This document shows, piece by piece, positions 13,601 through 58,223 of a stretch of DNA of 64,000 nt. The notes below the pieces were generated by a model, which was not told where the DNA came from, did not search any database, and saw nothing but the letters and a program-made list of their open reading frames with translations. Position 1 is the first letter of the stretch. Each line of letters begins with the position of its first letter. The stretch comes from a virus. The position numbers and the translations under genes are program-made. The DNA lies in IMG/VR virus record IMGVR_UViG_3300021338_000004, positions 1 through 64,000 of that record. One strand, 5' to 3'.

Positions 13601-16600
13601 GACTGGAGACCGGTGTCGGCAGATAGGCAATACGCTGAGACTCTTTGCCCGCTTCGTAGCTGTTCTTGAAGTGATGAGCTTCATCCACAATCACGGACTG
13701 GAAGTTCATGTCTTCGAAGTATGGGTATTCGCCTTTCTTATTGGTCCCTTCATCGCTGTAGGCCTGTCGTACCTTGTCGGTACGTTTCGCCTCGTTGTAG
13801 GACAGGCGATCACCGCCTTTGCCCATATCTACTTTTTCGCCGGCAATGGCCTCCACCGCATCGCGCTGGCTAATCAGGTCACGCTCAACCCATTTATCTG
13901 CGTATTTCTCTTTGGTGCGGGCGCGCATCGGAATCATGCCGAAGCGCTCCTGAGACATTACGATCTTGGATTTGGAGGTGTGCGGAATCTGGTGCATCTT
14001 GTCATAAATGGTCTGGGCATCATCTTCCACCAGAACATCTTGATACATCAGCTCGCCGGTAAACTTGTTTTTCTTCGGATTGCCCTCTTCATCCAATACA
14101 AGCTCGCGTTCGACGTTGCCATCCTTGCCGGCTTTCGGGCTAAAACCGATAAACAGCACGTCCTCCATGGTGCCAAGGAATGTATTGTGCTCGTGATACC
14201 AGTTACCCAGGACATTGTTTGGAACTACGGTCGCAGTGCGGTTCGCACGCCCCATCTGTTTGTTGTAGGTCGCCAGCGCGATCGCAGAGAAGGTTTTGCC
14301 CAGGCCAACGTCGTCAGCCAGGATGCCGCGCCCCTCTTCCGACATGCGACGGATACCTGCGTTTTGATACCCATGCGGTTTAATGGTGTCCGGGACGCCC
14401 TTCAGCTCCAATGAGTTCTCCTCATAGCTCATTGGAATGTAGCCATTGAACTTCTGGTTGTACTGCGCCTGCAGCTGTTCGGCGTCCTGGTGCTGCTGCA
14501 TGAAGATGGTGAACTCTTCTTCCAGCGCTTTGACCCGGTCTTTGTATTCCTGGATGTATTCCGCCTTGCTTGAAGTGATCGCGTTGCCGTTCAGGTAGCG
14601 ATTCATCTGCTTCAGGAACCCGGTTTCATCCATGTAGCCGTAGAATTCACCGAAAGGTGAGCTGGTATCATTGGTAAGCTCTTTCTCCCAGTATTTTTCG
14701 CCGGTATCGGGATCCTCGCGCTGTACGTCCTTTTCCACACCGTAGCGCAAGTGTCGATATCCCTTCTGCTCAAAAAACTCCAGGATGTATTTTCGATCAA
14801 ACCATTTTTGGTTCAGGCCAAACGAGATGTCTTCCAGGCTGGTGGAATTCACCTTAGCGCTGATCTCATCGATCTGCGCTTGCCATTTGGCTTTCAGGCG
14901 TGGATCGCTTTCCTGGCTCATCGCCTTGGCCAGTGCTGCTGCTTTCGGGAACACCTCTCCGGAACAGAAACGGTTCATCGGCATCATGCGACCGTCTGCG
15001 GTAATGGCTACACCTGGCTCCTCTGCCAAATCGCCCAAGCTCTTCAGTGCACGCGGCCCGCGGTATAGCGCTTGCACATCCTCCAGGGTGATTTCGTCAA
15101 TCCCCTCGCGAATGTACAGATGCTCAATGATCGATTGCAGCAGTGTATCGTCGTACTGCTGCTGGTCGCTGGCGGACTCTCCGGACAATAGAGCAGAAAA
15201 ATTACCGTCCTGGTCGATCGAATTCCGGAATACCCCCAGGTAGCGGGCGCTGTCGCCCTCTAGCTGCAGGTGGCGATTCTTCTTTGGGTCGCCATAGCGG
15301 TTGTATTCCGCTGCAACGAGCTCCTGCAAGGCAACCAGATCACCGGTATCCGCGTCACCTGTGCGCTCCTGGTTCTGGTATCGGTTGATCAGCGTGCCAA
15401 TCAATGCGCCGCGAAAAACCTGCTCTTGAGCGGATGGCGCTTGTTCAGCTGCGAGCGCGATTGCAGCCTTCTGCTGATCGGTGAAAAGGTCCGGCCAGCT
15501 ATCGCTTGCGGCTTTGGCCTGCTGATAGGTTAGGTTTAGCGTGGATTGATTATGTGACAACAGGCCTTTCAGTTGTTCAATGCTGTCAGCGCCGTAGGTT
15601 TTGACATCAATGCCGGTCGGATTGTCCAGGCCGTGATCCACTTCCTGCCAGTCGCCACCACTCATAATGTATTCGCGGTCGTTCATGTAGCGGCGATCGC
15701 CTTCCGCGTAGTAGCGGATGACCGGTTCTGCCGTGTCCAGCAGCGCCCAATCAATGCGGCTATCAAATTTACGTGCCAGCGCCTGTTTAAGGCCGGCTTC
15801 GGTGATCTCGTTGTTGATCACACGGTCCTGGTCGCGAAACTTGTTCGGATCTTTCGGGACGAACGTACCCTGGATGAATGGTCGCCCTTCCGGTGATTTG
15901 AACCATTCGCCTTGGATAAACGTGTCCCAAACCACATTGGCTGCTTTCAGGGTGTCGATTGACATATCCTGAATGCGTGCGATCGCATCGCGGGAATGCT
16001 TGCGCAGAATGATGACATCGGTAACGACATCAGTGCCTTGGCGACCAAACGTTTTAGATGGCAGCTTATGCGCGCCCAGGAATTCCGCCACCTTGCTTAG
16101 CTGGGTGCGCCAGCGCTCCCACTTCGCACCACGCCCGCTGACGATATTGATGGGCACTACCAGCGCAATCAAGCCGCCAGGGCGGACCTTATCCACCACA
16201 CGGCGTACAAAGTAGCGCTCAATCAGCTTCTCTTTCTTGTACAGCGGATCGTCATGGGCGGATGCGCCGCGGGCATCGCCAAACGGCACGTTGCCGATAA
16301 TGGCGTCAAAGGTGTCGTCTTGCGCATCGACCGCCAGCTTCTCAAAGCTCTGGTTAAGGATCTGATCTTCTGGATGAAGAATGCGGTTCACGCCTGCGGA
16401 CAGAGGATCGATCTCCGTGCCGGTGATGCGTACGCCGTCATTTTTGGTGGCACTGAACACGCCGGATCCGGTGGCCGGCTCCAGGACATTGCCGTTCTCA
16501 AAGCCGTTGGCTTTCAGCATATCCCACACACCTTCAGCAACGTGCGTTGGTGTGAAGTATTCATACTGGCTGTTAACGGTTAAGCCGCCGCGACCGGAGT

Positions 16601-26499: not shown

Positions 26500-27558
26500 T
26501 CAGCGATGCTGCACGAACAGTGACCATGCCTCTTCAAAGCTTTTCGGGCGCGTATCTTCACAATAATCTGAAAAAGCCTGGATTACAGAGTCCAGAGTGT
26601 AGTGCAGAGTATCAATACCTTTCAGCTGATGCATTGGCCGCTTTCTAAGCTCTTTCGCCAGTTCGGATACCGATGGTCGATCATCGCCAGGCTCAACGCC
26701 CGGCAGTACCTGCTGATCTTCATTGAATGGCTGGCGTGCCGGTGGCGCATCATCATTACCCTCTGCGCCTTCAGTATCACCCTTGTAATATTTGTCATCG
26801 GAAAAGAGCGACCCGCCATTGCGAAATTCTTTTACCTTCTTACGCGCTTCTGAAATTGTTTCGCGCAATGGGGTTTCCAGTGTGCCGTCTTGTGCACTCT
26901 TGGATATTTCCTGAGCTGCCGCTGGGTCTTCCTTGTGCAGTTGAATTAAATTATTCAGGGCATTAACGTCGGCTACCCCCTTTTGACTCGCCAGCTCTTG
27001 GACTACGTCAGGGGCCCTCAGAATTGAGAGGCGTTTGGACAGCCATGCAGGTGATCGACCTAGCTGCGTGGCAACATCCTGCTTATTTCGCCCCAACGCC
27101 TTGAAACCTTCCACCAGCGACTGCAAAGCCTCTGCCAATTCAATAGGGGGGAGTTCTTCGCGTTGCTCATTCTCCACAATTTGTGCGGCAAGCTTGCTTA
27201 AACGGTCTTCTGGCCTCTCTACAATCGCGCGAACGTTGCGACCGATGCTGGAGCAGGCCCGCCAACGCCGTTCCCCTTCGGAAATGATGTAGATGCCGTT
27301 AACGGGTGGGCTAACTACGATGGGCTGGCGCTGCTTATTTGCTCGAATGGATGCCGCCAGTTCGCTGATAGATTCTTCCGTGAACGTCTTTCGGGGCTGA
27401 TCAGGGTCGGGCTGACAAACATCGGGGGCGAGTTCGAGAACGCGATTCTCATCTACCAGCGCCTCATTCGCGCCAGTGGAGAGCATGCCCATCAGGTTTG
27501 AGTCAGCACCGGGCGCACTTCCCAACCCGCTCAGGTTGATGCCCTTGCCCTGTTTCAT
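26500..27558 (-). CDS. parB: ParB (Spo0J/KorB-type CTPase)
   Basis: PDQPRKTF, QPIVV, GERRWRA, ENEQRE, HTH VATQLGRSPAWLS. Confidence 0.93.
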   Translation of the reverse strand: MKQGKGINLSGLGSAPGADSNLMGMLSTGANEALVDENRVLELAPDVCQPDPDQPRKTFTEESISELAASIRANKQRQPIVVSPPVNGIYIISEGERRWRACSSIGRNVRAIVERPEDRLSKLAAQIVENEQREELPPIELAEALQSLVEGFKALGRNKQDVATQLGRSPAWLSKRLSILRAPDVVQELASQKGVADVNALNNLIQLHKEDPAAAQEISKSAQDGTLETPLRETISEARKKVKEFRNGGSLFSDDKYYKGDTEGAEGNDDAPPARQPFNEDQQVLPGVEPGDDRPSVSELAKELRKRPMHQLKGIDTLHYTLDSVIQAFSDYCEDTRPKSFEEAWSLFVQHR

Positions 27559-28472
27559 ACCATGATCTCCATGATCTCCTGCGTAAATCCTTGCACTTGT
27601 TCGGCAGCCTTCCCGCGCTTATTTAGCTCTATGACTGAGCAACCCATTCCCTGTGAGTCCTCATAGTCCATGAAGCGGGTAATCATGTTTTTCATGATTG
27701 GGATATCGAAAGCGCTACCCAGTTCCTTTGCGGCGTTGGCGCTATCTTTCTGTCGATTTTCTTGTGGGTGCTGCCGGCTAAGAAACATGAATGCATTTAC
27801 CGGTGCGCCTTCGCTGCGGCGCTTTTGGATAAACTCCAACAGGTGAAAACTTCCCCATGCATCAACCGACCCCGTCCCGAACGGCACCAAAATTAATCCC
27901 GGGTTATCAGGGTTGGACGCGGCAAGGATACCGCTGATGGTGATGTCTCGCGCTACAGCAGCACCATCGATAAACACAAAGTCATTATCCTTTGCGAGTT
28001 TTTCAGCGATAAGATGCACATCGTTATGCGGGTGATGTATCACTTCGGGCTGAACGCTCTCTTCTCCACCAGCTCGACGCCAGCACAAAGCGGACGCCTG
28101 TGGGTCGGTATCAAGGATTACGACCGAATAGCCCAAAAGCTGTACGACACGCGCCACATTGACGCATGATGTGGTTTTACCGGCTCCGCCTTTAGGGTTC
28201 AGCCAAGCTATGATTTTTCCCATGGGTAATTTCCTGCCTTTACCTTTTTTGTAACGTGACATGTCACGCTTCATGAATTCTGGACCTTCGTAGTACATCA
28301 ACGTCCGTATGTGTGCGGAAACCGTGCCGGATACAGGGTTCCCCTTTACATATCCTCTATGCGTTTCCGGGCTAATGCCGAGGCGTTCAGACCACTGCGG
28401 GACCGTCAGCCCAAGCATTTGGCGGGCGTCTTTGTACTCTTGCGTGCTTAAAAGGGTCTTTTTTGTACTCAT
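27555..28472 (-). CDS. parA: ParA Walker-type ATPase with N-terminal XRE-like HTH; possible internal start at 28223
   Basis: NPKGGAGKTT, DTDPQAS; N-terminal ARQMLGLTVPQWSERLGISPET. Confidence 0.9.
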   Translation of the reverse strand: MSTKKTLLSTQEYKDARQMLGLTVPQWSERLGISPETHRGYVKGNPVSGTVSAHIRTLMYYEGPEFMKRDMSRYKKGKGRKLPMGKIIAWLNPKGGAGKTTSCVNVARVVQLLGYSVVILDTDPQASALCWRRAGGEESVQPEVIHHPHNDVHLIAEKLAKDNDFVFIDGAAVARDITISGILAASNPDNPGLILVPFGTGSVDAWGSFHLLEFIQKRRSEGAPVNAFMFLSRQHPQENRQKDSANAAKELGSAFDIPIMKNMITRFMDYEDSQGMGCSVIELNKRGKAAEQVQGFTQEIMEIMV

Positions 28473-28560
28473 ACATAGCGCCAAAGGGGTATATATTACC
28501 CTTTTCATTAAATCGATTTTTATAATAGGGTTATATTTACCCTTTTACAAGAAAGATATA

Positions 28561-45919: not shown

Positions 45920-46318
45920 TCACGCTTTGATGAAGTCTTGCGGCCCTAAGTGGGTAACCGCGGCAGTATAGATGGGCTCAGCCCCAAAGCAGACATCGTT
46001 AAGCATGTCGCTAAATATCTGTATTGTTGCTTCTTTGGATATCGGGATTTCATGCCGGAACTGACATAGCACGTCATGAACCAAGCTAGCATCGTGTGTG
46101 ATTCGCTTGCCTTCATGCATGCGCCCGTCAGGCGTGCCAATCACAAACAGACCCAGGACATCATACTTCGGCGAACATCCGTCCCATGCATAACCGGTTC
46201 TAATTGTTATTTTCCCATGGGAAATTGAGCACCACTCATTGTGATGCTCAATACCCTCAAGCAACGGGTGCTTAAAGGTTTCTGGCTCCTTCAGTTTGTA
46301 TAAATAAACCTTCCCCAT
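45920..46318 (-). CDS. DUF1353-like protein
   Basis: GYAWDGCSP..ASLVHDVLCQ. Confidence 0.7.
   Translation of the reverse strand: MGKVYLYKLKEPETFKHPLLEGIEHHNEWCSISHGKITIRTGYAWDGCSPKYDVLGLFVIGTPDGRMHEGKRITHDASLVHDVLCQFRHEIPISKEATIQIFSDMLNDVCFGAEPIYTAAVTHLGPQDFIKA
46211..46224. promoter_or_regulatory. parS-like palindrome (intragenic)
   Basis: TTTCCCATGGGAAA. Confidence 0.7.
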
Positions 46319-47106
46319 CAGCCATCACCCAGCTCGTTCAGAATCATGGTGCGTGCATTTTCAAGCGTGTAGCTGCGGTTTACCTTGCCGATACCCTCGC
46401 CCTCAACAAACGCCTCCAGCTTATCAATATCTGGAATGACCTTGATCACCTCGATATCCAGATCCATGCGTTCAGCCGGTGGCGTTTCGAGCATAGATAG
46501 AGCCAGCTCTCGCCAGTCATCCGCCGTTTGTGCGTTATCGATACTGAGATTTAGTGGTACACCACGGAGAAGAGAGTCATGCAGCACCGGTGTAAAGAGA
46601 CCTTCCTGCAGATAGAGACCAATCCCTTTGATAAACGCCGGGTGCTTGATGTAGATATCACCGGACAGCTGATCGTCTTTTATCTGCTGCACTTTGATAT
46701 GGGTGCTGGCGCGTTCGTAGATGCTGTCCAACACCGCCTCTGGTATCTGCGCGCGGAACTCCCGTGATGTAAACAGCGTTTTATACTGCACAGGCTCAGG
46801 CGGCGGTGGGTCTAGCAAATCACGCAGGGGTGTTAACAGAGCGCGGTTTACAACGATCATCTCTGTGCCGCTCTGTAGCTCAGCCGCAGCGGCATCGATT
46901 ACTGATTGAAGCGTTGCTTCGGGTTCTTCGCCTTCGGCCACCGGTGTGGGCAGATCGAAGACCGGCACATCAGGTTCCGCTGCTGTGTAGATGCCGTAGA
47001 TCTGATCGTTAACAGTTATCGTGCCCGGATTAGGTTGTGCCAGTTGCAGCGGGTGTTCTTCAGGAAGCGCTGAGATCAGCGCGAGTGTGTAGAGATCAGC
47101 GCGCAT
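46318..47106 (-). CDS. Hypothetical protein (possible fibre-associated chaperone)
   Basis: Translationally coupled to the 1070-aa gene. Confidence 0.6.
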   Translation of the reverse strand: MRADLYTLALISALPEEHPLQLAQPNPGTITVNDQIYGIYTAAEPDVPVFDLPTPVAEGEEPEATLQSVIDAAAAELQSGTEMIVVNRALLTPLRDLLDPPPPEPVQYKTLFTSREFRAQIPEAVLDSIYERASTHIKVQQIKDDQLSGDIYIKHPAFIKGIGLYLQEGLFTPVLHDSLLRGVPLNLSIDNAQTADDWRELALSMLETPPAERMDLDIEVIKVIPDIDKLEAFVEGEGIGKVNRSYTLENARTMILNELGDG

Positions 47107-50100
47107 TACACGGCCTCCTTGAGTAGTTCTCTGACGGATGCACCGCCAATATTGTATAGAGCAGATCCATCGACTCGATAGATTGCAAAATTTGCATTTT
47201 CAGCAATGAAGTCGCCCTTAATATCTGAGTTAAAGGCGCTATCCAAGTTGTTATAGGCCGTGCTGGACCCAGCTTTTAGAGCGCCAGAAATACGCTCAAC
47301 ATCGTAAACTTCACCGCGATACGTTTGTCCGACCGTTAGAACATTGCTCTGACGAACATAGGCCATACCATCGACGGTAGCGTCCAATTGCGCGACTCCG
47401 TTTACAACATCAACATTTTTCAAAGCCCAGCCGATAGCACCCTCAGAGAAGTCTGCGTTTGAAAGGCGCTCTGGGCTCAACCACTCCCGCACATGATCGC
47501 CCTGGTAGACAAACTTCGGATATGCGTCAGCAGGAGGGTTTTCGATAGCTCCGGCGTTGGGAGCTTCCCGAACATCAAGAATGCTCAGTGTTAGCCGCTT
47601 TCCTGTAGCCATGTTCCCCGTTCGTTGGGCAAATACACGAATAGGCCCATCAGTAGCCGTAAATACGAACTCTGCGGTGTCTCCCGAATCAATCCCGGTT
47701 TTTGCCGCCAATGTTTGTAATGACGCCGCATCCCACGCCTTCGCATACCAGCTTTCACCACCACTGGTTTCTGCGCCAATACGTACCGCATATGTTTTGC
47801 CAGGCTCAGTAGGTACAACTACATAGATGTATGCCCAACTGTCAGCGGTTGCGGTTAACGTGTTTTCAGACACAACGCCATTACCTGCTGCCGCAAACGG
47901 CAGCCCCGCTGCAATATTCGCCCCAGAATCCGCCAGTGCGTCATACAGAATGCCGGTTTCCGAATCCATGAGGTACAGGCGGGAGTTTGTTAAGGGTGCA
48001 TCTAAGTCAATCCACGCCTCATACAGCCTGTACCCTTTTCCATAAGGGACGCTGGTTGTACCCGACGGCCAGCTACCACCAATGCTATCGAGCGTTATCT
48101 CAACCGCCTCGCGGTTATTTGAGTCATCCCTACGTTCATTATCTATGCGCGCGACATAGCCTGACTCAGTAGATTGAACGGCAATTTCCACTAATCCCGT
48201 GAAATCTAAACCCGCTATGTCATGCACGGTGTGATTGCCACCACCAACATATAGCCTCAACGAGTTTTTCCATAAAATTAGGCGATCACCACCGAGCGAA
48301 GAATTCGCCGATATATGCATACCTAGATAGGCAATATCGATGTCGGCAGGAATAGAGAGCTTGCTTGTAATTTCAATACTAGTTGCTGTCCACGGCTCAA
48401 CACGCCCCTTCATGCTTACGCCATCAAAGTACGGTATTGGACGAACCTTGCCCGCTCTGTTCTTCAGTAGCGCCTCAATGCGGCGACGCAATTTGTAGAG
48501 TGGAGAGGCTGGGATAGCACGCCGGACGCCGACCGAAATTGTGCCCACGAATTTAGATCCTGCCTCAGTTTGCAATGTTACATTCACCTTCCCATCAACT
48601 GGGGTGACTATCCGCTCAAACTCAAGCGAGGCCGCCGCTCCAAACCACGGTTCGCCCCCAGCCAGTTGATAATCGACTTTGATCCTTCCGGTAGATCCCG
48701 GCGTGGCCCTCATTGCTATTCTGTAATGCTCACCGACAAACGATGAAAACCCCAACAGAACGCTGGCCCAGTCAGCTTCGCTTCCATCCCACGTTGTGAT
48801 TGAATTTTGGGTTACTAATTCATCAACCCCGATAAGATCACCGTCATCTACCCGATAGCGGCGTACTGCATCAAGCGGCATGTTATGAACACGCCCCCAG
48901 CCTGGGGCGCGGCGAATCGAAAAACGAACACCAGATTGAGCACGACCAAACTCACGAAACACAGCTGTAGTTCCAGCGGCATCAATCACGTGCAATCCGT
49001 TTGAAAGACGCGGTCCCCAGCCAGATATTTCATAGAATCGCAGAGATGAATCGTCGCTCAGCCCCGAAATGTTGAGCAGGTATGTCGCCCCGGCATTCAT
49101 CCCCACTGCCAGCGTTACGTTTTGATCAAGCGGAAGATCTGATATGCCAGTGTGTAATTCTGCACCAAGCTCACCACCCGGCGCTTCGTTCTCAATCACA
49201 CTATCGCGGCGTTTGAACGTATAACGACGAACAACTGTCTTACCGTCATTAACTTGCACCAGCGGCATCGGCCCTTTCCAGTGACCACCCGTTGAATCCG
49301 GGTGTCGGGCAACGATAAACCCGCTCAAATCGCCGTTAAAATCGGTCAGCCCTCGAAATACCTCAACGCCATCAACTTCAACAACAGCTTGGTCGCCATC
49401 TATGTACATTTCATATCTGCGGCGGAGGCCATCGCTGATGGGAATAGTTTCGACATACAACGAGCCATGACCAACCAGCAGATTGCCGTTTTGCTCTGCC
49501 AGATAAAAGCGGTTTCCCGAGTGACGCCCTGCCATAAATCGCGCGCCTGTGCTCACCTCTGTTGTCGAGTCTTCAACAATCAAACGCGGCTTAGCAATCG
49601 CGGGCAGCGGCTCAACTTCAGCATACATGCCCTCACCGTCGAAGTGAGTAATATCAACTTCGGCTGGTGGCTCATCTTCGTCAACAATTTCCGGCACCGG
49701 GCTGCCAACACGCCAAATACCCGGGTTGGTCGGACTTAGATCGAACTCGTGATAGCTTTCTTCCCCTGTGTCCAGGTTTTTTATATTGATCGCCGGCAAG
49801 AACCCTTCGAAATATTGCCAGACTGGTGCGCCCTGCAAATCAGGGAATGGCATATCAACAACGCCGCCCACCATAAGCTGAGATATCGATAGATTGGGTT
49901 CACCATCAACAAAGGACGCTTCCCCTCTATCAATGCGAACCCCAAAAGCCTCGCTTTGGGAGATCAGGTCAATACGGTGCAGCGCATTATCATGCCACTT
50001 GCCCTGCTGAAGGGGGATTCTCAGTTTTGGCTTAAGCTCGTACCAAACAACCAACTCATCACTCACGGTGACGTGCAAGCCGTCAGGATCCGTGCTGGCC

Positions 50101-50318
50101 AATAGCATCTGAAGGTGCGTCTTTTGGGTGGATACCCAAAGCGTGATTTTAAAATTAGTCGCATCAAAACGCGGCAGCTTTACTGCCAACTGGTCATTCT
50201 TATGCGGTACAAATGGCTGCACATACGCGAATCGGCTCGGCCAAGCGCGCTGGTGTTTTGCAAGATGCGACGCACCAAACATCGGCGCTATATGTCCCAG
50301 CTTTTGCTGGATGATCAT
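47106..50318 (-). CDS. Large beta-sandwich-rich virion appendage (LamG/CBM-like repeats)
   Basis: THFDGEGMY and PYFDGVSM LamG-like starts; CBM-like PTEPGKTY and NADFSEG..W segments. Confidence 0.6.
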   Translation of the reverse strand: MIIQQKLGHIAPMFGASHLAKHQRAWPSRFAYVQPFVPHKNDQLAVKLPRFDATNFKITLWVSTQKTHLQMLLASTDPDGLHVTVSDELVVWYELKPKLRIPLQQGKWHDNALHRIDLISQSEAFGVRIDRGEASFVDGEPNLSISQLMVGGVVDMPFPDLQGAPVWQYFEGFLPAINIKNLDTGEESYHEFDLSPTNPGIWRVGSPVPEIVDEDEPPAEVDITHFDGEGMYAEVEPLPAIAKPRLIVEDSTTEVSTGARFMAGRHSGNRFYLAEQNGNLLVGHGSLYVETIPISDGLRRRYEMYIDGDQAVVEVDGVEVFRGLTDFNGDLSGFIVARHPDSTGGHWKGPMPLVQVNDGKTVVRRYTFKRRDSVIENEAPGGELGAELHTGISDLPLDQNVTLAVGMNAGATYLLNISGLSDDSSLRFYEISGWGPRLSNGLHVIDAAGTTAVFREFGRAQSGVRFSIRRAPGWGRVHNMPLDAVRRYRVDDGDLIGVDELVTQNSITTWDGSEADWASVLLGFSSFVGEHYRIAMRATPGSTGRIKVDYQLAGGEPWFGAAASLEFERIVTPVDGKVNVTLQTEAGSKFVGTISVGVRRAIPASPLYKLRRRIEALLKNRAGKVRPIPYFDGVSMKGRVEPWTATSIEITSKLSIPADIDIAYLGMHISANSSLGGDRLILWKNSLRLYVGGGNHTVHDIAGLDFTGLVEIAVQSTESGYVARIDNERRDDSNNREAVEITLDSIGGSWPSGTTSVPYGKGYRLYEAWIDLDAPLTNSRLYLMDSETGILYDALADSGANIAAGLPFAAAGNGVVSENTLTATADSWAYIYVVVPTEPGKTYAVRIGAETSGGESWYAKAWDAASLQTLAAKTGIDSGDTAEFVFTATDGPIRVFAQRTGNMATGKRLTLSILDVREAPNAGAIENPPADAYPKFVYQGDHVREWLSPERLSNADFSEGAIGWALKNVDVVNGVAQLDATVDGMAYVRQSNVLTVGQTYRGEVYDVERISGALKAGSSTAYNNLDSAFNSDIKGDFIAENANFAIYRVDGSALYNIGGASVRELLKEAV

Positions 50319-50629
50319 GTCCGAATTACCCCCAGCTGAACAACGGCATCAGCCTCACTGGTTTCTGAAAACGGCCCAAGCTCAACTTTATGTATTTTGC
50401 TACGGACCACCCCCTCAAACCCTTCGAATGGAAGATGCTCTCTTGGGTAAAGGAGAAATCCAATATCGTCTGACCCTGGCGGGGAATCTTCACCAGATAT
50501 GTGAATGCGGACAGTCATGGTCTCGGACTGATTCTGAATGGAAACAGAACTGTGCGATGTGCTGTTGGCATGTACCTCCCAGTGGTCTGGGTATGATTTT
50601 TCGGTCACGGTATTCGTTGTGGGCATCAC
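50315..50629 (-). CDS. Small beta-rich hypothetical protein
   Basis: First gene of the appendage operon. Confidence 0.55.
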   Translation of the reverse strand: MMPTTNTVTEKSYPDHWEVHANSTSHSSVSIQNQSETMTVRIHISGEDSPPGSDDIGFLLYPREHLPFEGFEGVVRSKIHKVELGPFSETSEADAVVQLGVIRT

Positions 50630-50758
50630 GTTCCCCTGTATGAGCTATGTCAGGATGATAAGCAGGGGATGCCATTGCCGAATCAAAAATTAAATATTGT
50701 TACGACTCATGTTGCCGTTCGATAGATTGCCTTTTCCTACTTCACTATTTGGTCATTT

Positions 50759-50788
50759 GCCGCTGGGCCCTCCTGGCGGTATTTTTTT
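50759..50788 (+). terminator. Plus-strand intrinsic terminator upstream of the recombination site
   Basis: GCCGCTGGG-CCCT-CCTGGCGGT-ATTTTTTT. Confidence 0.6.
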
Positions 50789-50797
50789 ACCCACCTC

Positions 50798-50831
50798 AAT
50801 TCGTTATAAAACATATCTTTTATAACGAATT
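50798..50831. other. 34-bp loxP-shaped recombination site
   Basis: AATTCGTTATAAA-ACATATCT-TTTATAACGAATT. Confidence 0.75.
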
Positions 50832-50862
50832 CAGCAAAATCAGCACTTTCAGGCCAAGCCAC

Positions 50863-50917
50863 TAGACAATATTTTTTTATTTAGTTATAAAATATTTAAA
50901 TAATACGATTTTATAAC
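50863..50917 (+). promoter_or_regulatory. Recombinase promoter overlapped by a second binding site
   Basis: TAGACA-N17-TATAAA; GTTATAAAA-N16-TTTTATAAC (50884-50917). Confidence 0.65.
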
Positions 50918-50939
50918 CAATAAGGGGTTTGGCGCTGAC

Positions 50940-51554
50940 ATGGCAGGAAAACAAGCAAAGATCCTCTCTAAGCAGCAGCAGCGACTCGCGTTAGCGTATT
51001 TAGATGGCACACGATGGCCTGAACGCAACCGGGTCATGTTTTTGCTCAGCGTGAAGGCGGGATTGCGATCGAAAGAGATCGCGGCATTGTCAATGTGGAA
51101 CGTTGCTGACTGGGAGTACCAGGTGCTCGATTTTATCGAAATCACCGACAAGGACTCCAAAGGAAAAAAAGGCGGCCGAAAAATTCCGCTGAACCAGCAG
51201 CTCAAAGAGGAGCTTCAGATACTGATCGATCAGGTCAGGACGCTTCCCAACGGGTCTGATCCAAGCATGCCGATTATCCGAAGCGAAAGAGCTGGCCGCA
51301 CAGAAAAAACTTCACCACAGGTAATAACCAACTGGTTTAAGCGTCTGTATGGGCCAGCAGGGTTAAATTTTGCCGGCTGCTCCTCGCATAGTGGCCGTCG
51401 TACGTTTGGCACCATGGCTGCTCGCAACATCTCAGCTGCAGGAGGCTCTTTAAAGGATGTGAAGTATTTAATGGGACACAGCAGCATACAGACAACACAA
51501 ACCTACATTGACGAAACCGAAGAAGCGAAACGAAACGTCGTTAATATGATTTAA
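50940..51554 (+). CDS. Tyrosine recombinase, catalytic domain only (putative dimer resolvase)
   Basis: GLRSKE, SKG, HSGRR, GHSS, QTY give the R-K-H-R-H-Y catalytic set. Confidence 0.92.
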   Translation: MAGKQAKILSKQQQRLALAYLDGTRWPERNRVMFLLSVKAGLRSKEIAALSMWNVADWEYQVLDFIEITDKDSKGKKGGRKIPLNQQLKEELQILIDQVRTLPNGSDPSMPIIRSERAGRTEKTSPQVITNWFKRLYGPAGLNFAGCSSHSGRRTFGTMAARNISAAGGSLKDVKYLMGHSSIQTTQTYIDETEEAKRNVVNMI

Positions 51555-51566
51555 GGAACGCAACTT

Positions 51567-52001
51567 ATGCTATCTACCCCGCAAATAGACTCATTCCTGG
51601 CGCAGTTCAACGAAAGTCCGTTGGCGTTATCACTGGATCATTACCTGGTAGACCGCGCCAAGGAATGGAACGGACAAGCAAACGCCCTTGCAGGCATCGT
51701 CAATCCCGCATCGCTGCTTTACAAATTAGAGGACCGCTTTGGCTTTGATCCTAATAGTCCTGAGTGGAATTCAGAATGGAACTCCCACCATAAGCAGCTG
51801 GCTTTCATTAAAGCTTTCAAATGCTTACAGCGGGAATCAGTAATTGAGATTGTCAGCTTAACCAAAACCAAACTTACATTAGGATTCATTCACAACAGCG
51901 CCGGAGCCCCGTTTAAGCTCGTTTTTTCGGGAAAAACAGCGTGCCATGCCGAACGATTACTACTACCGGCCCGCTGGCTAAAGTCCAATGAATGGATTTA
52001 A
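51567..52001 (+). CDS. Hypothetical protein, co-transcribed with the recombinase
   Basis: AAGGA RBS. Confidence 0.65.
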   Translation: MLSTPQIDSFLAQFNESPLALSLDHYLVDRAKEWNGQANALAGIVNPASLLYKLEDRFGFDPNSPEWNSEWNSHHKQLAFIKAFKCLQRESVIEIVSLTKTKLTLGFIHNSAGAPFKLVFSGKTACHAERLLLPARWLKSNEWI

Positions 52002-52207
52002 GAAATTGTGACATGTCACAACGCAAAGGAATGGACATGAATATATTTAACTACTCACTGCGCTACCTGGAGCGCTACCTGGCGCGCAAGCTGGTACGCT
52101 GGCTGGTAAAGCAAGCACTAGATCGCCCCCTACTCACATTGTCAGCCGTTGGATTGTTAGCAATCGCCTATGCTGCCCACCAGCTATTCCCGGACCTTTT
52201 TGCATAG
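51992..52207 (+). CDS. Small membrane protein (start probably about 52031-52037)
   Basis: C-terminal hydrophobic helix. Confidence 0.5.
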   Translation: MDLRNCDMSQRKGMDMNIFNYSLRYLERYLARKLVRWLVKQALDRPLLTLSAVGLLAIAYAAHQLFPDLFA

Positions 52208-52210
52208 CAA

Positions 52211-52224
52211 TTTCCCATGGGAAA
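52211..52224. promoter_or_regulatory. parS-like palindrome
   Basis: TTTCCCATGGGAAA. Confidence 0.7.
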
Positions 52225-52333
52225 GCATGCTTGAGCAGTGTTCCTGTTAGACCAATGATAGAGCCGGAAAATATCCGGCCATCGTTCCTATTTTATATTC
52301 ATTGATAACAGCAACCCATCAGCGCCCCATCCA

Positions 52334-52378
52334 AATAAAACCCTCTCCATAGGAGATCTAATTGAGAGGGTTTTATTT
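52334..52378. terminator. Bidirectional terminator after pacB
   Basis: AATAAAACCCTCTC..GAGAGGGTTTTATT. Confidence 0.7.
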
Positions 52379-52379
52379 C

Positions 52380-54122
52380 CTACGCCAAAGCATGACGATA
52401 CATATCATCAAGCCGTTTCACTTCCATTAGAGCAATCTGCGCCCGCACATGGTCACCACCATCCAAGCATTTGGCAGCCCAATCCTGTAGGTTTTGACGT
52501 ACCTCTGGATAATCCTCTAGTGTGCACTCGACGATCTCACTATCTGCGATCGCCTGCAGATCTCCAGGCGGCTCTGCTTCCATTGGCTCATCTGACAAGC
52601 CAAGCATGGTAAGCGCGTCATCCAAGTGGCGTTCTGCTTCTTCATTATCGGCATCAGAGCCACACGGTATGTAATTAGCCAGGAACGCAAAGGCGTATGT
52701 ATCGAAGATATCGGGCGATGCAATGCCCTGCGATCGCATCCGTTGCTTACTCATCATGAGCCATTGCCCACGGTCACTGAAGCCGTATGGAAGCTGTGTG
52801 AACTGAGTAATAGTTTTTGATCGCAGCGTGTCGTCTTTGGGATCCTGGTAGATAGACATACGCCCTGAGTCCAATGCGAAGCGGATTGCGACACAGGCCA
52901 TATCTTTTTTCTTGGGGAAGCGCCTTAGCATCGCCCGGGAATGAGGAGGAACCCCCCAGTGAATTCGCTGCACATTAAGTCCTGCGCGCTCACACTCTTG
53001 GGCCGTCGTCAGACCTAGTCCATCTGAGTCAATTGCGACAGTAACATTCGGGTATTCCTGCGAAGCAGCAATGATGCGGCGCGCAAAATCGACCGGGTTA
53101 CTACCTTTCGGTTGCACTTCTACTTTGACAGGCTCAACGTGGCGGTCATTAAACCCCGTACCCGATACTTTAAAAACGCTCATAACGGAGCTGTCACGCT
53201 CTTCCCCACTCGCCACATCGGCAGTTATGACCCACCCCCACTCTTCTTTGTGCCGCACAGAGATCTTAAAACCTGCATCAACCACGTTACGGCTTAACAG
53301 CATTCCGTCCAGGCTGTCAGGACAGACTCCCAGCACGCGGATCTGATATTCCGGGCTATCCCTTCCACCATATTCAAACCGCTTATCACGAATGAACTTC
53401 ATGGTTACAAACGGAGATTCCTCGGAATTCAGCGTTATTGCCGTGTATTTGCCTTTGGGGTTCGCCTCTGTTTTCGCCAATCGCAGCTGACTATCTGCGA
53501 AGTGCCCATTTGGGCGTGTAAACTGGCTCAACAGAAGGATCTTGTTATTATCTTCCGTAAGTGCGCCACTCAGCGTACTAAAAACCTTATCATCCGCACC
53601 AGACGCCTCGTCAACGACCACAAGATAATCCGCACGGTGGTTACCCGCCAAACCGTCCTCATTCCCCTTGGCACAGGTTTTTCCGAAGATCTGCCAGACG
53701 CCTTTAAAGCCACGAGCATAGAACGACTTGGCAGTAACCAGAAAGTATTGCTCAAGCCAGCGGTGTCTTTTGCAGATATCGGCCCACACGCGCTTGATGT
53801 ACGCAAAAACAACGTTAATTACCTGGTCGATACTGTTCGCAGTCAGCATAACCAGGCTGATCGGATGGCATATTAGGAAATGCAGGCACAGCGCTGCTGT
53901 TAGATGAGACTTTCCCGTACCATGCCCGGAAGCAACCGATACTGCGGCTCCTATTGGCTTCAGCGCAAAGATAACATCTGCCTGTTGCCAGCTTGGTTCC
54001 ATACCGCACACATCAACAACAAAGGCGTACGGATCGTTCATATAGGATGCCGCAAAGTCTAAATATCGCGGATCCTCCAGTATGGTGCGTTTACGTTTCT
54101 TGGCCATCATTTTCCTCGGCAT
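52380..54122 (-). CDS. pacB: Terminase large subunit (PacB-like)
   Basis: VASGHGTGKS, VVDEASG, ADVASG, SPDIFD. Confidence 0.93.
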   Translation of the reverse strand: MPRKMMAKKRKRTILEDPRYLDFAASYMNDPYAFVVDVCGMEPSWQQADVIFALKPIGAAVSVASGHGTGKSHLTAALCLHFLICHPISLVMLTANSIDQVINVVFAYIKRVWADICKRHRWLEQYFLVTAKSFYARGFKGVWQIFGKTCAKGNEDGLAGNHRADYLVVVDEASGADDKVFSTLSGALTEDNNKILLLSQFTRPNGHFADSQLRLAKTEANPKGKYTAITLNSEESPFVTMKFIRDKRFEYGGRDSPEYQIRVLGVCPDSLDGMLLSRNVVDAGFKISVRHKEEWGWVITADVASGEERDSSVMSVFKVSGTGFNDRHVEPVKVEVQPKGSNPVDFARRIIAASQEYPNVTVAIDSDGLGLTTAQECERAGLNVQRIHWGVPPHSRAMLRRFPKKKDMACVAIRFALDSGRMSIYQDPKDDTLRSKTITQFTQLPYGFSDRGQWLMMSKQRMRSQGIASPDIFDTYAFAFLANYIPCGSDADNEEAERHLDDALTMLGLSDEPMEAEPPGDLQAIADSEIVECTLEDYPEVRQNLQDWAAKCLDGGDHVRAQIALMEVKRLDDMYRHALA

Positions 54123-55455
54123 CCAGCGCCTCTAGCTCTTTGCGACGCTTCGCGAGGGCCTCTTCCTTTTTCGCAGCGTACTGCTGCTCCAATTCTTGAG
54201 CGCGCGCCTTAACCTGCTCTGGCGTAACACCACCATCGCCCATGTCGTCCTCGTTCTCGTCCTGGAATTCGGCCACAACCTCTTTTTCCAGCACAGGCGG
54301 TAGTTGCATAACCCCGGCCTTCATCAATCTGTAGGCGGCCTCTAGGGCTGTCAGCCCCTTATCCTCTTTCTCACTCAGCACTTCCTGCAGCAATTCGGCT
54401 TGATTGAGATAGGTCAGCGTATTCGCATGAATCAGGCGGGCATGTTTTAGCTTCAGGTTGGATAGGTTGGTGGTGAACCGGTGAACCAGCTGATTAAAGT
54501 CCGGCATCTGCTTAACGAATTGGATCCCGTCGTTGCCAGTGCCAACGCCCACCTCTATGCGCGCATCGTCATACATTTCCACTGGCACACTGCCGCCGTC
54601 GGCATGCTGTTTGAGCTGGTCGTACTCCATTTGACGCTGCAGAGTACGCATAAGCTGGCGACTAACTACCCGTATTTCACCTTCCAGGCTATGGGTATCT
54701 ACATCGTCTAACGCCTGACGTTCATCTTCGCTCTCAAACTGGGAATAAATGCCGTGTTTAGATGCATTCTGATTGCGTGCCGGTGCGCCTTCTGATTTTC
54801 CGCCGTGCAACTTGCAGCGACCGGTGCCGAAATGATGGGTTCCCCAGCCGGCGGGCATCTGGCAATAGCCACCACTGCGCGTAGTCGCATTGCAACAGCC
54901 GTCTCTCGGTCCTGGCGGTTCACCGTCATCACCCCCGTCACCACTCTCTTTCTTGCCTTCCAAGCCAAAGACGTTCATCAGGTTGCGACCGAAGGATGAA
55001 GGGCCGTCAGACGCATCTTCCGAGCTGCGATTTTTCGCATTTCCAGCGGCACCGTTGCGGGCACCGTCATGGGGTTGTTTCACAGATTCGATGGGAATGA
55101 CGTTGTTTGAAGTGCGCGCGCGACCCTCTATATCACGCTCTTCACTCTTATCATTTCCCTTATTATTCAGAGGCTTATCTTCTTTACTACCAATCGCCTT
55201 ACTGCGATTTTTCGCATTCCCTGCACTGCGACTTTTCGCACGCGCATTTTTCGCACTTTTCGCAGAAGGCTTACTCGCATTTTCCAGCCAGGCTTTGGCC
55301 GCTTTTCGGGTGATATATCGCTTTGCGGAACCATAAGAAACACCGGCCTGATTGCACCAGTCTTCAGCAGAAATCTGTGTTGCGTCATATGCCTTGGCAT
55401 ACGCTTCCAACAGACCTTTCCATTTGGCGGGATAATTGTCGTATGGGGCAGACAT
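54091..55455 (-). CDS. pacA: Terminase small subunit (PacA-like) with an HGGxSTG-type Zn domain
   Basis: N-terminal HTH (YGSAKRYI), CKLHGGKSEG, NQNASKHG.Y; overlaps pacB. Confidence 0.8.
   Translation of the reverse strand: MSAPYDNYPAKWKGLLEAYAKAYDATQISAEDWCNQAGVSYGSAKRYITRKAAKAWLENASKPSAKSAKNARAKSRSAGNAKNRSKAIGSKEDKPLNNKGNDKSEERDIEGRARTSNNVIPIESVKQPHDGARNGAAGNAKNRSSEDASDGPSSFGRNLMNVFGLEGKKESGDGGDDGEPPGPRDGCCNATTRSGGYCQMPAGWGTHHFGTGRCKLHGGKSEGAPARNQNASKHGIYSQFESEDERQALDDVDTHSLEGEIRVVSRQLMRTLQRQMEYDQLKQHADGGSVPVEMYDDARIEVGVGTGNDGIQFVKQMPDFNQLVHRFTTNLSNLKLKHARLIHANTLTYLNQAELLQEVLSEKEDKGLTALEAAYRLMKAGVMQLPPVLEKEVVAEFQDENEDDMGDGGVTPEQVKARAQELEQQYAAKKEEALAKRRKELEALDAEENDGQET
55026..55280. repeat. 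Clustered TTTTCGCA / TGCGA-N4-TCGCA repeats (candidate pac site)
   Basis: TTTTCGCA at 55032, 55209, 55233, 55248 and 55257, in the 5' part of pacA. Confidence 0.6.
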
Positions 55456-55562
55456 GGAGCTTTATCGCCCTCCCTTATGACACACAACAACCTGGTACTG
55501 CATATAGTCGCTCTCCAGCAAAAAAGAGACGACGACACCGGGAAGCATCGCCGTCCCGGTCC

Positions 55563-56108
55563 TTACGTGCTTGCAGAATCTGCTTCCAGCACACCTGCAA
55601 ATCGACTTGCCGTTTGAAGTTTTGCCAGGAGCTCATCATTTCTTTTGGTCAGATCAGCGTTGGCTCTCTCCAGGTGCTCATTGTGTCCTTTCAGTTTCTG
55701 GAGATCTTCTTTCAGGGCCCTGTTGGATTTACGCATGGCGCTAAGCTCATCTGTAAGACGACTCACCTCCTGATCGAAATGGGCACGATCCTCTTCGGCT
55801 TGGCGTTCATACTCTTCCACCAGCCTTGTGCACTGGTCTCTCAATAGCTCATTACTGGCTTGCGCTTCCTTGCGCACGGTTTCCATCATGGTGCTCTGTA
55901 TTTTCACCAGCGTTTCAGCGGCCTTAACATGAGCATCCTCTGCCTGGGCATGTTTTAAGCCAGCATCAGCGGCGTTCACTTTACGACCACCCCAATAAGC
56001 CCAAAAGCCAGTAGCACCCACCACTGCCGAGACAAGCGACGCCACGCCTAAAATTAATTCAGGCTTAGTGCTCCACAGCAGAGGAAGAGTTGTCACCGGA
56101 TCGGACAT
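55563..56108 (-). CDS. Single-TM coiled-coil protein of the lysis cassette
   Basis: N-terminal TM helix plus long coiled coil. Confidence 0.65.
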   Translation of the reverse strand: MSDPVTTLPLLWSTKPELILGVASLVSAVVGATGFWAYWGGRKVNAADAGLKHAQAEDAHVKAAETLVKIQSTMMETVRKEAQASNELLRDQCTRLVEEYERQAEEDRAHFDQEVSRLTDELSAMRKSNRALKEDLQKLKGHNEHLERANADLTKRNDELLAKLQTASRFAGVLEADSAST

Positions 56109-56373
56109 CTTGGCTATTCCCCCATTCCCGGATGCTGCGCTTGTCGATGTTGCAGGCTTTGAGCGCGGCTTCCAGTCGATCCACTCTCTCCAGCAACGCG
56201 CCATTCGTCAGCCCTTGGAGCTGAGGTATTGGCGTTTCCAGCGTGTACCGTTCGGGCACCAGCACTTTCCGCATCTCCGTTTTGGGGATGTGAACCGTTT
56301 TCACCGGTCCCGAGCTGCATCCGGTACACAAAATCAGGCAAAGGCTGATCAGCCCAAATGCGGTATTCGTCAT
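56065..56373 (-). CDS. o-spanin (Rz1-like lipoprotein)
   Basis: Lipobox CTGC; Pro-rich; CNID; overlaps the i-spanin. Confidence 0.8.
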   Translation of the reverse strand: MTNTAFGLISLCLILCTGCSSGPVKTVHIPKTEMRKVLVPERYTLETPIPQLQGLTNGALLERVDRLEAALKACNIDKRSIREWGNSQDVRSGDNSSSAVEH

Positions 56374-56677
56374 CAGTGTCTTTCTCCTGTCTAAGACGGT
56401 TCAGCCGATCCTGAAGCTGCGCATTATTTTTTTGATGGTTAGCTTCCCGTTGAGCATTGATACGGCGCTCATTAGCCTGCTGCACCAGCAGCCGGTTTAT
56501 TTCATGCGCCTGCTCATTCAGAGTGTTCAGACTCCAGTCCCGTACTAACTCCAGCTGTGCTTTATCTGCCTGCAGCTGACTGACTTCCCCTTCCAGGTTT
56601 CCTTTGGCCACAACTTGCCAGCCAAAAACAGCGGACAGGATGGCAAGCCCGCCAGCCACCATGCGAAATCTAGTCAT
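56114..56677 (-). CDS. i-spanin (Rz/LysB-like)
   Basis: N-terminal TM, coiled coil, WADQPLP. Confidence 0.8.
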   Translation of the reverse strand: MTRFRMVAGGLAILSAVFGWQVVAKGNLEGEVSQLQADKAQLELVRDWSLNTLNEQAHEINRLLVQQANERRINAQREANHQKNNAQLQDRLNRLRQEKDTDDEYRIWADQPLPDFVYRMQLGTGENGSHPQNGDAESAGARTVHAGNANTSAPRADEWRVAGESGSTGSRAQSLQHRQAQHPGMGE

Positions 56678-57258
56678 ACCCTCACCTTCATGCGCAGAAA
56701 GAAGCGCCAAATACGCCTAACGTATGTCAGCGTTTCTTTTGAGTGATGACCGGTAACTGCAGGCAGACACTTTGATATGCCGTCGTAGGTCCGTTTCCCA
56801 CCGCATAGCTTTTGTGCCTTGAGAAGATTGCCGAAACCGGCGTTATACGATGCCATTGCAAGGCTGTGACGGTCCTTTTCAGGTCGCGGGCTGCTCCAGC
56901 CTTTGCGAAGACGCGCCATGTAGTACGCGGAAGCCTGGATGTTATGGTGCTCACTGAACACCGACACCCCAGCAAACCCCATAGCAGTACTCACATCAGC
57001 CCATGTCCCCGGCATAAACTGCCCCAATCCTTTGGCTCCTACCGGCGACACCGCATATGGCTTTAACAGGCTTTCCTGGTAGAGCTGTGCTTTCAGCAAT
57101 CGCCAGTCAAGACCAGGTAACCACATGCGCGCAGCATCTTTGATTTGAGCGTCGTAACGATCAGGAAAGTGCGTTGCTGACAAGGTAGGCGACACCCAGA
57201 AAACGCAGCCCGTAATAAAGAGCCAGATCCGAATATTTGCCTTTAGTTTTCGCATCAT
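56674..57258 (-). CDS. SLT-family endolysin with an N-terminal signal/SAR segment
   Basis: YQES, AVSPVGAKGLGQFMP.T, ASYNAG, ETLTYV. Confidence 0.9.
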   Translation of the reverse strand: MMRKLKANIRIWLFITGCVFWVSPTLSATHFPDRYDAQIKDAARMWLPGLDWRLLKAQLYQESLLKPYAVSPVGAKGLGQFMPGTWADVSTAMGFAGVSVFSEHHNIQASAYYMARLRKGWSSPRPEKDRHSLAMASYNAGFGNLLKAQKLCGGKRTYDGISKCLPAVTGHHSKETLTYVRRIWRFFLRMKVRV

Positions 57259-57412
57259 TAACCCACTCCTTAAATGAGACGCCCGCCAGGCGATCGAAAT
57301 AGCGCAGCACCTGCGTTGAGATAACCAGGGCCACCAGCAGCAAAGCCATCTTCAGCAACGAGCCGAAGATGAACACATCGTTCATAAAGTCCGACGAGAT
57401 CGGTCCATCCAT
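57161..57412 (-). CDS. Putative holin
   Basis: 83 aa, two TM helices, upstream of the endolysin; GAGGT RBS. Confidence 0.65.
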   Translation of the reverse strand: MDGPISSDFMNDVFIFGSLLKMALLLVALVISTQVLRYFDRLAGVSFKEWVNDAKTKGKYSDLALYYGLRFLGVAYLVSNALS

Positions 57413-57701
57413 AAGAATTCACCTCAAATTGAGTTAGGACGACTGCACCATGCAGCCGCTCGACGACATCTCACCAGTTCCAGGTGACTAACTCATCTAA
57501 AGAAAAATTTGTAGGACCATTGTTCCTATATAAAAAACTCAAATAATTTGTTCATTGCACAAATTTTATGTATTTTAAATAGGCAACTTGATGGAAAAAG
57601 GAGTGGGTTTCAGCGAATGACGAGCCGCCACGCTAACACGCGGCGAATAACGAGACTCACAACAAAAAAATATTGTGTAAGTAGGAAGTAAGGAGAAAGA
57701 C

Positions 57702-58223
57702 ATGTTGATTTTGACCCGCCGAGTTGGCGAAACACTGATGGTTGGCGATGAGGTATCCGTCACCGTGCTTGGCGTTAAAGGAAACCAGGTTCGAATCGGG
57801 GTTAATGCCCCCAAAGATGTGCCCGTGCACCGGGAAGAGATCTATCGCCGGATTCAGGATGGTTGCAACCAGCCACTATCCGGCACAAAGCCAAAGGGCG
57901 GCTTTAAAAAGGGAGATTATGTTTCGCTTCAAGGAACACCTATCTCCACTCCCATTCTGGATGTTGAAAAAGGCGTAGACGGTACGCTCACTCTTGGGGA
58001 CGGCTCAACCGCGAAAGCCAGTCAATGCACCCTGCTCTGGCGACCATTCAAGATGGGCGATATGTCAGTAACGCAGCCCGGCAACCAGCGCCACGCAATC
58101 GCTAACCAACGCGACATTGATAGCGGCAATAAATTCGATCAGGGATTGGGCTCATTCCCGCTTGTGCATGAAAACACGTCATGGCGTGGAAGCCCTAAAT
58201 GGCAAAGCACGGCGTGTCGCTGA
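57702..58223 (+). CDS. csrA: CsrA/RsmA homologue with a C-terminal extension of about 120 aa
   Basis: [30 protein letters not shown]. Confidence 0.92.

Follow-up and report, generated by a model that had tools for sequence, protein, structure and literature searches.

A small catalytic-domain-only tyrosine recombinase with a conserved array of half-sites in a probable P1-like phage-plasmid

Tyrosine recombinases normally clamp DNA with a core-binding domain, and the known exceptions, FimB and FimE, need host factors. Reviews of these enzymes treat the clamp domain as universal (PMC8138268). The viral DNA analysed here, the first 64,000 nucleotides (hereafter, the window) of the 77,175-bp IMG/VR record IMGVR_UViG_3300021338_000004, encodes a tyrosine recombinase of 204 aa that consists of the catalytic domain only. 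Four copies of a 13-nt half-site precede its gene, two of them forming a perfect palindrome (site I) and two a wider inverted pair (site II). An initial annotation of the window had likened this locus to a miniature Cre/lox system.

Cre/loxP of phage P1 and Dre/rox of phage D6 offer a parallel in genomic setting. Here as there, a P1-like myovirus and (here probably) plasmid prophage carries one tyrosine recombinase gene with a palindromic site just upstream, beside pacAB; as in Cre/loxP, the site measures 34 bp from outer edge to outer edge, and its presumed job is dimer resolution and cyclisation. The window protein nevertheless shows no blastp relation to Cre at 1e-5, has 204 aa against the 343 aa of Cre and lacks the N-terminal clamp domain. 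Unlike the Cre/loxP arrangement, the family comparison favours a 13-6-13 site over a 13-8-13 one, an extra, stretched pair of half-sites lies over the presumed promoter, and the gene is oriented towards pacB, in contrast to P1 cre, which runs away from it. The protein also falls outside the length range of the Cre-type class, the systematic survey of which was confined to 300-400-aa proteins; in that survey, a palindrome within 1 kb of the recombinase gene pointed to a functional site in about half of the tested cases (PMC10250229).

The likeness to TnpI and its IRS is one of site layout: in both cases four motifs that bind, or here presumably bind, the recombinase occupy about 116-120 bp directly upstream of the gene, as an inverted core pair plus two accessory or regulatory motifs. 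TnpI, which at 284 aa is larger than the window enzyme, belongs to a Tn3-family transposon, requires no host factor and cleaves its core with a stagger of 6 bp. In its case the accessory motifs are repeated directly; those of site II are inverted, and the spacer between them is longer by one helical turn. The IRS of Tn4430 spans 116 bp (IR1, IR2, DR1 and DR2), and its accessory motifs bias the reaction towards resolution (PMC2847244).

In sequence and fold the nearest systems are those with a single Xer recombinase (XerS/difSL, XerH/difH and archaeal XerA/dif), with which the locus further shares a 6-bp central region, one site per replicon and, presumably, dimer resolution. The NCBIfam XerA, XerC and XerD models, however, match the window protein only weakly and over their catalytic halves (E 1e-12 to 1e-9), with scores of 47.6 bits for XerC and 47.2 bits for XerA that lie far under the family cut-offs of 335 and 220, and the core-binding domain is absent. 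In contrast to these systems, the module occurs on mobile replicons (its window copy on a probable phage-plasmid) and, in chromosomes, alongside two Xer-size recombinases. FimB and FimE, the ~200-aa invertases, are likewise catalytic-domain-only enzymes, but the window protein does not match NF007370 (the only score, 16 bits, comes from a homologue and lies under the cut-off of 221), and the genome holds a single site instead of an inverted pair around a switchable segment. The ~200-aa proteins of the phage phiCbK gp143 type, from large lytic phages, belong to the same broad family: its distant members, at 32-36% identity, include proteins annotated as “putative tyrosine recombinases” in phages that are phiCbK-like or otherwise large. 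The 208-aa gp143 of phiCbK was described in 2012 as “little more than the catalytic core”, with a proposed role in multimer resolution and no description of a cognate site (PMC3556154). Literature searches on the family motifs or the cognate site found no description. What appears to be new here is a tyrosine recombinase with an adjacent core site, no clamp domain and a conserved control region of four half-sites.

The recombinase gene and its upstream region

The features of the locus, in the order of the sequence, are as follows.
50758-50790, plus strand: terminator-like hairpin with a 10-pair stem (6 G-C pairs), followed by TTTTTTT
50798-50831, no strand: site I, presumed crossover (core) site, AATTCGTTATAAAA-CATATC-TTTTATAACGAATT, a perfect 14-6-14 palindrome
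50863-50891, plus strand: putative sigma-70 promoter of the recombinase gene, with -35 TAGACA (50863-50868), a 17-nt spacer and -10 TATAAA (50886-50891)
50881-50920, no strand: site II, presumed operator and/or accessory site, with inverted half-sites TTAGTTATAAAAT / ATTTTATAACCAA
50940-51554, plus strand: catalytic-domain-only tyrosine recombinase, 204 aa (PF00589, phrog_216, catalytic residues)
51567-52001, plus strand: open reading frame (ORF) of 144 aa, starting 13 nt past the recombinase stop codon

Sequence and predicted structure strongly support a catalytically intact tyrosine recombinase domain. PF00589, the sole Pfam match of the protein, covers residues 9-194 (E 1.4e-16), and phrog_216, classed among the integrases in PHROGs, matches at E 1.8e-35. 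The residues R43, K74, H150, R153, H180 and Y189 are invariant across 19 aligned family members and align to the catalytic positions of XerD and XerA. An AlphaFold2 model built on 19 sequences reached a pLDDT of 90, and in Foldseek it retrieved XerA 5hxy as the best match (TMq 0.72-0.74), followed by Tn1549 Int, Cre and XerH; the matches to XerA, Cre, XerH and lambda Int all had a probability of 1.0 and TMq of 0.6-0.74. By sequence, the nearest solved structures are Pyrococcus XerA (PDB 4a8e was also matched) and E. coli XerD. The enzyme is not a Cre relative; its nearest matches in both sequence and fold are Xer-type catalytic domains. At its N-terminus stands a conserved basic tail, MAGKQAKIL, and the open frame reaches merely 12 codons upstream of the start codon, which leaves no room for a core-binding domain. 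The initial annotation, which had credited the protein with all catalytic residues and no N-terminal core-binding domain, was correct on both counts.

Site I is composed of two inverted copies of the half-site ATTCGTTATAAAA, 13-14 nt long, around the asymmetric 6-bp spacer CATATC, and can equally be read as 13-8-13. No other perfect palindrome in the 77,175-bp genome is as long; the remaining six all have 10-nt arms, and several of them are GC-rich and terminator-like. In site II, the core of which is GTTATAAAA-N16-TTTTATAAC (50884-50917), the spacer equals that of site I plus 10 bp, and the half-sites bracket the presumed -10 and transcription start, with the putative TATAAA falling inside the left half-site. 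Both sites are located in a divergent intergenic region, their centres ~86 bp apart and that of site I at -125 relative to the recombinase start codon, and all four half-sites are packed into 123 bp (50798-50920). They are confined to this place: the 9-mer GTTATAAAA has four copies in the genome on both strands, all within 50803-50917, and a 12-mer half-site with at most one mismatch occurs only at the same four positions. When up to three mismatches are allowed, 54 matches are found, the four sites included, as against 35-66 in shuffled sequences; matches with 2-3 mismatches are at chance level, and the genome has no secondary sites.

Most of what had been read from the window alone about these sites proved accurate, namely a perfect palindrome open to both the 13-8-13 and the 14-6-14 reading, its position some 110 bp upstream of the recombinase (the gene starts 108 bp after site I), and a second site with the same half-sites spaced by 16 instead of 6 bp, an arrangement that recurs in homologous loci. 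The description of site I as a 34-bp 13-8-13 site needs qualification: it holds for the length and one possible reading of the window site, but the homologous sites, of 30-34 bp, fit 13-6-13 (+/-1) better.

The terminator-like hairpin, a strong one, abuts site I upstream and lies on the strand of the recombinase gene, though it is not preceded by any gene on that strand; insulation of the module against upstream transcription is a possible function. The 144-aa ORF is probably co-transcribed with the recombinase gene. It has no Pfam, PHROG or NCBIfam match and no counterpart beside the recombinase in the 82 homologous loci with clustered neighbours, and is not a conserved partner.

Conservation, co-variation and mobility of the module

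The window enzyme is no one-off, but a member of a family of ~195-aa proteins with thousands of members. A search of a large protein collection yielded at least 7,768 significant homologues among 8,000 scored candidates of near length, the best among the matches listed having 50-55% identity and 191-204 aa, whereas only three longer homologues were found against at least 7,700 of near length. Nearly all members begin with M-(A/S)-G-K-Q-A-K-I-L. Genome matches come mostly from Alphaproteobacteria, and also from Piscirickettsia, Vampirovibrio, Parachlamydiales, Burkholderiales and others. The family is present on 413 PLSDB plasmids, chiefly of Acinetobacter (162) and Piscirickettsia (156), then of Legionella, Vibrio and Aeromonas, and one plasmid homologue adjoins a YefM/YoeB addiction module. 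A nucleotide search of the recombinase locus against phages gave no match. Clustering of neighbours in the 82 loci revealed no other conserved gene, and none that could supply a core-binding domain.

The upstream palindrome is a recurrent property of the family. Homologous loci, 160 in all, were anchored at the start codon; palindromes with arms of 12-22 nt and spacers of 4-8 nt, counted over 84 loci, numbered 21 in the 200-bp bin before the start codon and 1-4 in each other bin across 6 kb, and most of the upstream ones were centred near -120. Their half-sites follow the pattern ACTnnnnATAnAA, then a spacer of 6 +/- 1 nt, then the mirror image, with the variable positions differing among loci, as in ACTCATTATATAA-TCTAAG-TTTTATAATGAGT, GACTCGTTATAGAA-TATACA-ATATATAACGAGTC, ACTTGTTAGAAAA-TGTAA-TTTTCTAACAAGT and ACTCCCGTTAAAA-TTCATA-TTTTATCGGGAGT. 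Homologous loci carry a 13-6-13 palindrome at a distance from the start codon like that in the window, centred near -125, and in many of them, alphaproteobacterial ones included, two extra half-sites lie near -57 (top strand) and -27 (bottom strand). The spacing is preserved as well: on pPSB1-1, a gammaproteobacterial plasmid from Piscirickettsia salmonis, the gap from GTTATA to TATAAC is 12 nt in site I and 22 nt in site II, identical to the window, and the distance of ~86 bp between the two centres recurs in alphaproteobacterial loci. A -10 hexamer TATAAT or TATATT overlaps the upstream half-site of site II in homologous loci, with CTGGAC or TTGAC 17 nt before it.

The half-sites also change together. 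Among 12 non-redundant loci with clearly different half-sites, compared over 18 positions, site II differed from the site I arm of its own locus by a mean of 3.8 mismatches per 18 nt and from the arms of other loci by 6.5, and none of 10,000 permutations reached the observed own-locus match. Since the four half-sites of a locus change together, their binder is probably encoded locally. Taken as a whole, these comparisons strongly support an array of four 13-nt half-sites ahead of the gene, with a layout that the family conserves and that co-varies with the locus. Two finer patterns were looked for and not seen: the gene-proximal arm of site I is no closer to site II than the distal arm, as a trace of exchange with foreign sites might have made it (23 vs 22), and the two sites' left and right arms show no “parallel” pairing (7 vs 11).

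The module moreover behaves as a unit of sequence. Copies with 85-98% nucleotide identity (loci L097, L139, L125 and L101; the L100-L140 group; L095 and L099) are embedded in unrelated flanks, the start of which coincides exactly with the outer edge of site I on one side and with the stop codon on the other. In the draft assembly of P. salmonis LF-89, contigs of 717 and 742 bp hold the module alone. No site was found past the recombinase stop codon in the palindrome scan of homologous loci, and five module-bearing chromosomes contain no second full site. In Azospirillum canadense (NZ_JAOQNG010000001.1, ~2.975 and 2.990 Mb; L163 and L166), two modules with identical upstream regions face in opposite directions ~14 kb apart, an orientation that would allow inversion of the intervening segment. 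A hybrid-like site I was noticed within the first 45 nt of L099 (P. salmonis LF-89 scaffold 103), where the distal arm and the beginning of the spacer are identical to their counterparts in the pPSB1-1 module and the proximal arm resembles the half-sites of its own site II. It was considered as a possible trace of module exchange and set aside, the genome being too rearranged to build on.

It is possible, though on balance doubtful, that the whole ~195-aa family acts without a core-binding domain on its own 32-bp 13-6-13 site, the basic N-terminal tail perhaps holding the outer half-site, that at least 12 mutually distinct half-site specificities exist in nature, and that the ~740-bp unit of site and gene is a discrete cassette. 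In that case no smaller self-sufficient lox-like system would be known, and it might also be a minimal mobile unit.

The surrounding genome, a probable phage-plasmid

The genome around the module belongs to a marine P1-like phage and is probably a circular phage-plasmid. The ends of the IMG/VR record overlap by 30 bp, which indicates a circular assembly, and ~26 genes match phage P1, among them those for the portal, Pro, sheath, tube, baseplate, DarA, DarB, Hdf, Ulx and PacB. The genes for packaging, partition and replication are listed below.
26500-27558, minus strand: parB (352 aa; PF02195, E 1.3e-18)
27555-28508, minus strand: parA (317 aa; PF13614, E 2.5e-11)
52380-54122, minus strand: PacB-like large terminase, with 43% identity to P1 PacB (PHROG terminase family)
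54091-55455, minus strand: PacA-like small terminase subunit (PHROG terminase family)
68841-69704 of the full genome, outside the window: TrfA replication initiator (PF07042, E 4.2e-25)

The presence of TrfA, ParA and ParB points to a probable plasmid prophage. The packaging genes converge with the recombinase gene, which lies at a distance of 0.8 kb from where pacB ends. The P1 genes are arranged as pacA, pacB, c1, coi, imcBA, lox, cra, cre, with 4.0 kb between the pac cut and the centre of lox. A blastp comparison of the genome ORFs with P1 Cre at 1e-5 found no homologue, and neither a second PF00589 protein nor a serine resolvase was found in the genome. No transposase turned up among the annotated ORFs, the coverage of which is not exhaustive. 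The 204-aa enzyme is the only site-specific recombinase of this genome, and it has a single site. This context (a P1-like phage-plasmid with TrfA and ParAB, no Cre, and one site near pacAB) supports the earlier suggestion that the enzyme takes the place of cre/loxP.

The closest relative is the circular 79-kb Vibrio vulnificus plasmid p48/10, with ~40 collinear genes at 40-60% amino-acid identity (TerL 58%, TrfA 52%); TerL as a lone query against viral contigs found no relative. In p48/10 a different catalytic-domain-only recombinase of 196 aa (NC_025128.1, 28206-28796) is encoded at 1.8 kb from pacB. Its relation to the window enzyme is remote (35% identity over 60 residues), no palindromic site was seen beside it, and the plasmid additionally carries two full-size recombinases of 383 and 366 aa. 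The different small recombinase near pacB hints that the position is conserved and not the particular enzyme.

Other features of the genome were noted in passing. The parB-parA pair sits amid a block of baseplate and tail genes, whereas the par genes of P1 adjoin repA. A minus-strand gene at 10638-18302 encodes a DarB-like protein of 2,554 aa (35% identity to P1 DarB over 1,950 residues) and is followed by DdrB-like, DarA-like and Hdf-like genes, which make up the P1 anti-restriction head-protein set. At 57702-58223 on the plus strand lies the gene for an extended CsrA of 173 aa, the first 52 residues of which form a full CsrA domain (E 2e-24) while the other ~120 have no family match. RecT and a PDDEXK exonuclease are encoded outside the window, at 71885-73952 of the full genome.

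Proposed role, alternatives and implications

We consider it rather probable that the small recombinase and its four half-sites provide what Cre/lox provides in P1, that is, an own site for dimer resolution and perhaps cyclisation, combined with autorepression. The protein would recognise the half-site ATTCGTTATAAAA that precedes its own gene, a pair of protomers on site I forming a 13-6-13 core site, and four protomers on two copies of site I would assemble a tetramer in which strands are exchanged across the 6-bp spacer, as the geometry of the site and the invariant catalytic residues suggest. Site II could not be a normal crossover site, because its half-sites are one helical turn further apart; binding there, across the -10 and the transcription start, may instead shut off the gene, and the same site may double as an accessory site that favours intramolecular resolution, like DR1 and DR2 of TnpI/IRS. 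Judging from the genomic context, the enzyme and its single site would convert replicon dimers to monomers before ParAB-driven partition. The DNA injected after headful packaging could also be cyclised in this way, if site I falls within the terminal redundancy.

Several observations weigh against this proposal. Cyclisation is its weakest and a speculative part, as the pac site has not been located, the pacA homologue having no hexamer cluster of the P1 pac type. The self-sufficiency of a 204-aa enzyme without a clamp is uncertain. Upstream palindromes are mostly absent in distant phage homologues with 30-47% identity, many of those at 40-47% included, and the phiCbK-like loci among them have no clear upstream palindrome, merely a GC-rich terminator-like hairpin. 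Most family members are chromosomal, and five module-bearing alphaproteobacterial genomes also carry two recombinases of Xer size (302-346 aa), beside which a role in dimer resolution is not obvious. A strict promoter scan, finally, did not call the putative TAGACA-17-TATAAA promoter, because the sixth base of its -10 is A. The promoter is presumed from its near-consensus hexamers and from better promoters at the same place in homologous loci, and the original statement that site II covers the -10 stands as far as the overlap of the hexamer and its recurrence are concerned, but not as a promoter call.

Integration is an unlikely alternative in which site I would be the attP at which the enzyme inserts the phage into a similar host attB, and from which it excises it. 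Integration modules classically pair a tyrosine recombinase with an adjacent site, the chromosomal location of most family members fits this alternative, and one group of gut alphaproteobacteria has a conserved gene directly against site I and variable cargo (such as Fic and methylases) after the recombinase gene. The window genome, however, has its own replication initiator and partition genes, its closest relative p48/10 is a free plasmid, and the five module-bearing chromosomes, with one full site each, lack a second att-like copy. Logan contigs from four seawater metagenome runs of 2018 match 46000-58000 without differences and bridge sites I and II without joints, so that only the intact site is seen and the same phage genotype appears to be present in several samples, although these are assembled contigs and some of the runs may be the source sample. 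A metagenome scan with one arm of site I plus the spacer returned eight matches, all chance-like, without a second arm or a recombinase. Both the bridging and the scan weigh only lightly against an integrated form, since rare variants are lost from contigs.

It is distinctly unlikely that the protein is a pure regulator, a recombinase-derived repressor for which both palindromes serve as operators of its own and the divergent promoter and which does not recombine DNA. Such a function would agree with sites in a divergent intergenic region, with site II over the presumed promoter, with a conserved centre-to-centre distance of ~86 bp that would suit a repression loop, and with one site per genome, which leaves no partner in cis. 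The invariance of the six catalytic residues across the family is nevertheless not expected of a mere repressor, site I has the geometry of a core site (inverted arms and an asymmetric 6-bp spacer, 6 +/- 1 bp in the family), and there is no conserved downstream gene to regulate.

Quite improbable is mobilisation by a relaxase with the tyrosine recombinase fold, of the kind known from SGI1 (MpsA) and pCW3 (TcpM); the repeats would then be an oriT nicked for helper-driven transfer. Recombinase-related relaxases with an oriT next to the gene do exist (PMC6414798, PMC13635750), the module is found in varied mobile contexts, and the family is common on plasmids, 216 of the 413 PLSDB carriers being classed as “non-mobilizable” in standard relaxase typing. 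Two-fold symmetry around a 6-bp spacer, with a second inverted pair, is however the geometry of double-strand exchange and not of a nic site; MpsA needs MpsB, yet the 82 loci contain no conserved partner gene; and the AT-rich 13-mers seen here differ from the SGI1 oriT, which is rich in GC and has short inverted repeats (PMC6414798).

That the palindrome is a dif-like or cer-like site of host XerCD while the small recombinase acts elsewhere, the case against itself that the initial annotation had raised, is very improbable: the 6-bp spacer and the AT-rich arms with a TTATAA core loosely recall dif, but the arms do not appear to match its conserved XerD arm, the half-sites differ strongly among loci and co-vary with the extra half-sites beside the linked gene even within one species, whereas a site used by host Xer should not vary inside one host, and the co-variation within loci, with a locally encoded binder and the recombinase as the only conserved local gene, argues against XerCD.

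Should the 204-aa enzyme recombine site I on its own, it would be a recombinase ~40% smaller than Cre, made attractive for compact genetic tools by its short site, its inbuilt autoregulation and its many relatives that are orthogonal by nature, and it would recognise a 13-bp half-site and achieve synapsis without a clamp domain. P1-like phage-plasmids would then fill the “lox-cre slot” beside their packaging genes with unrelated recombinases, and thousands of genes now labelled merely “site-specific integrase” would gain a function and a cognate site.

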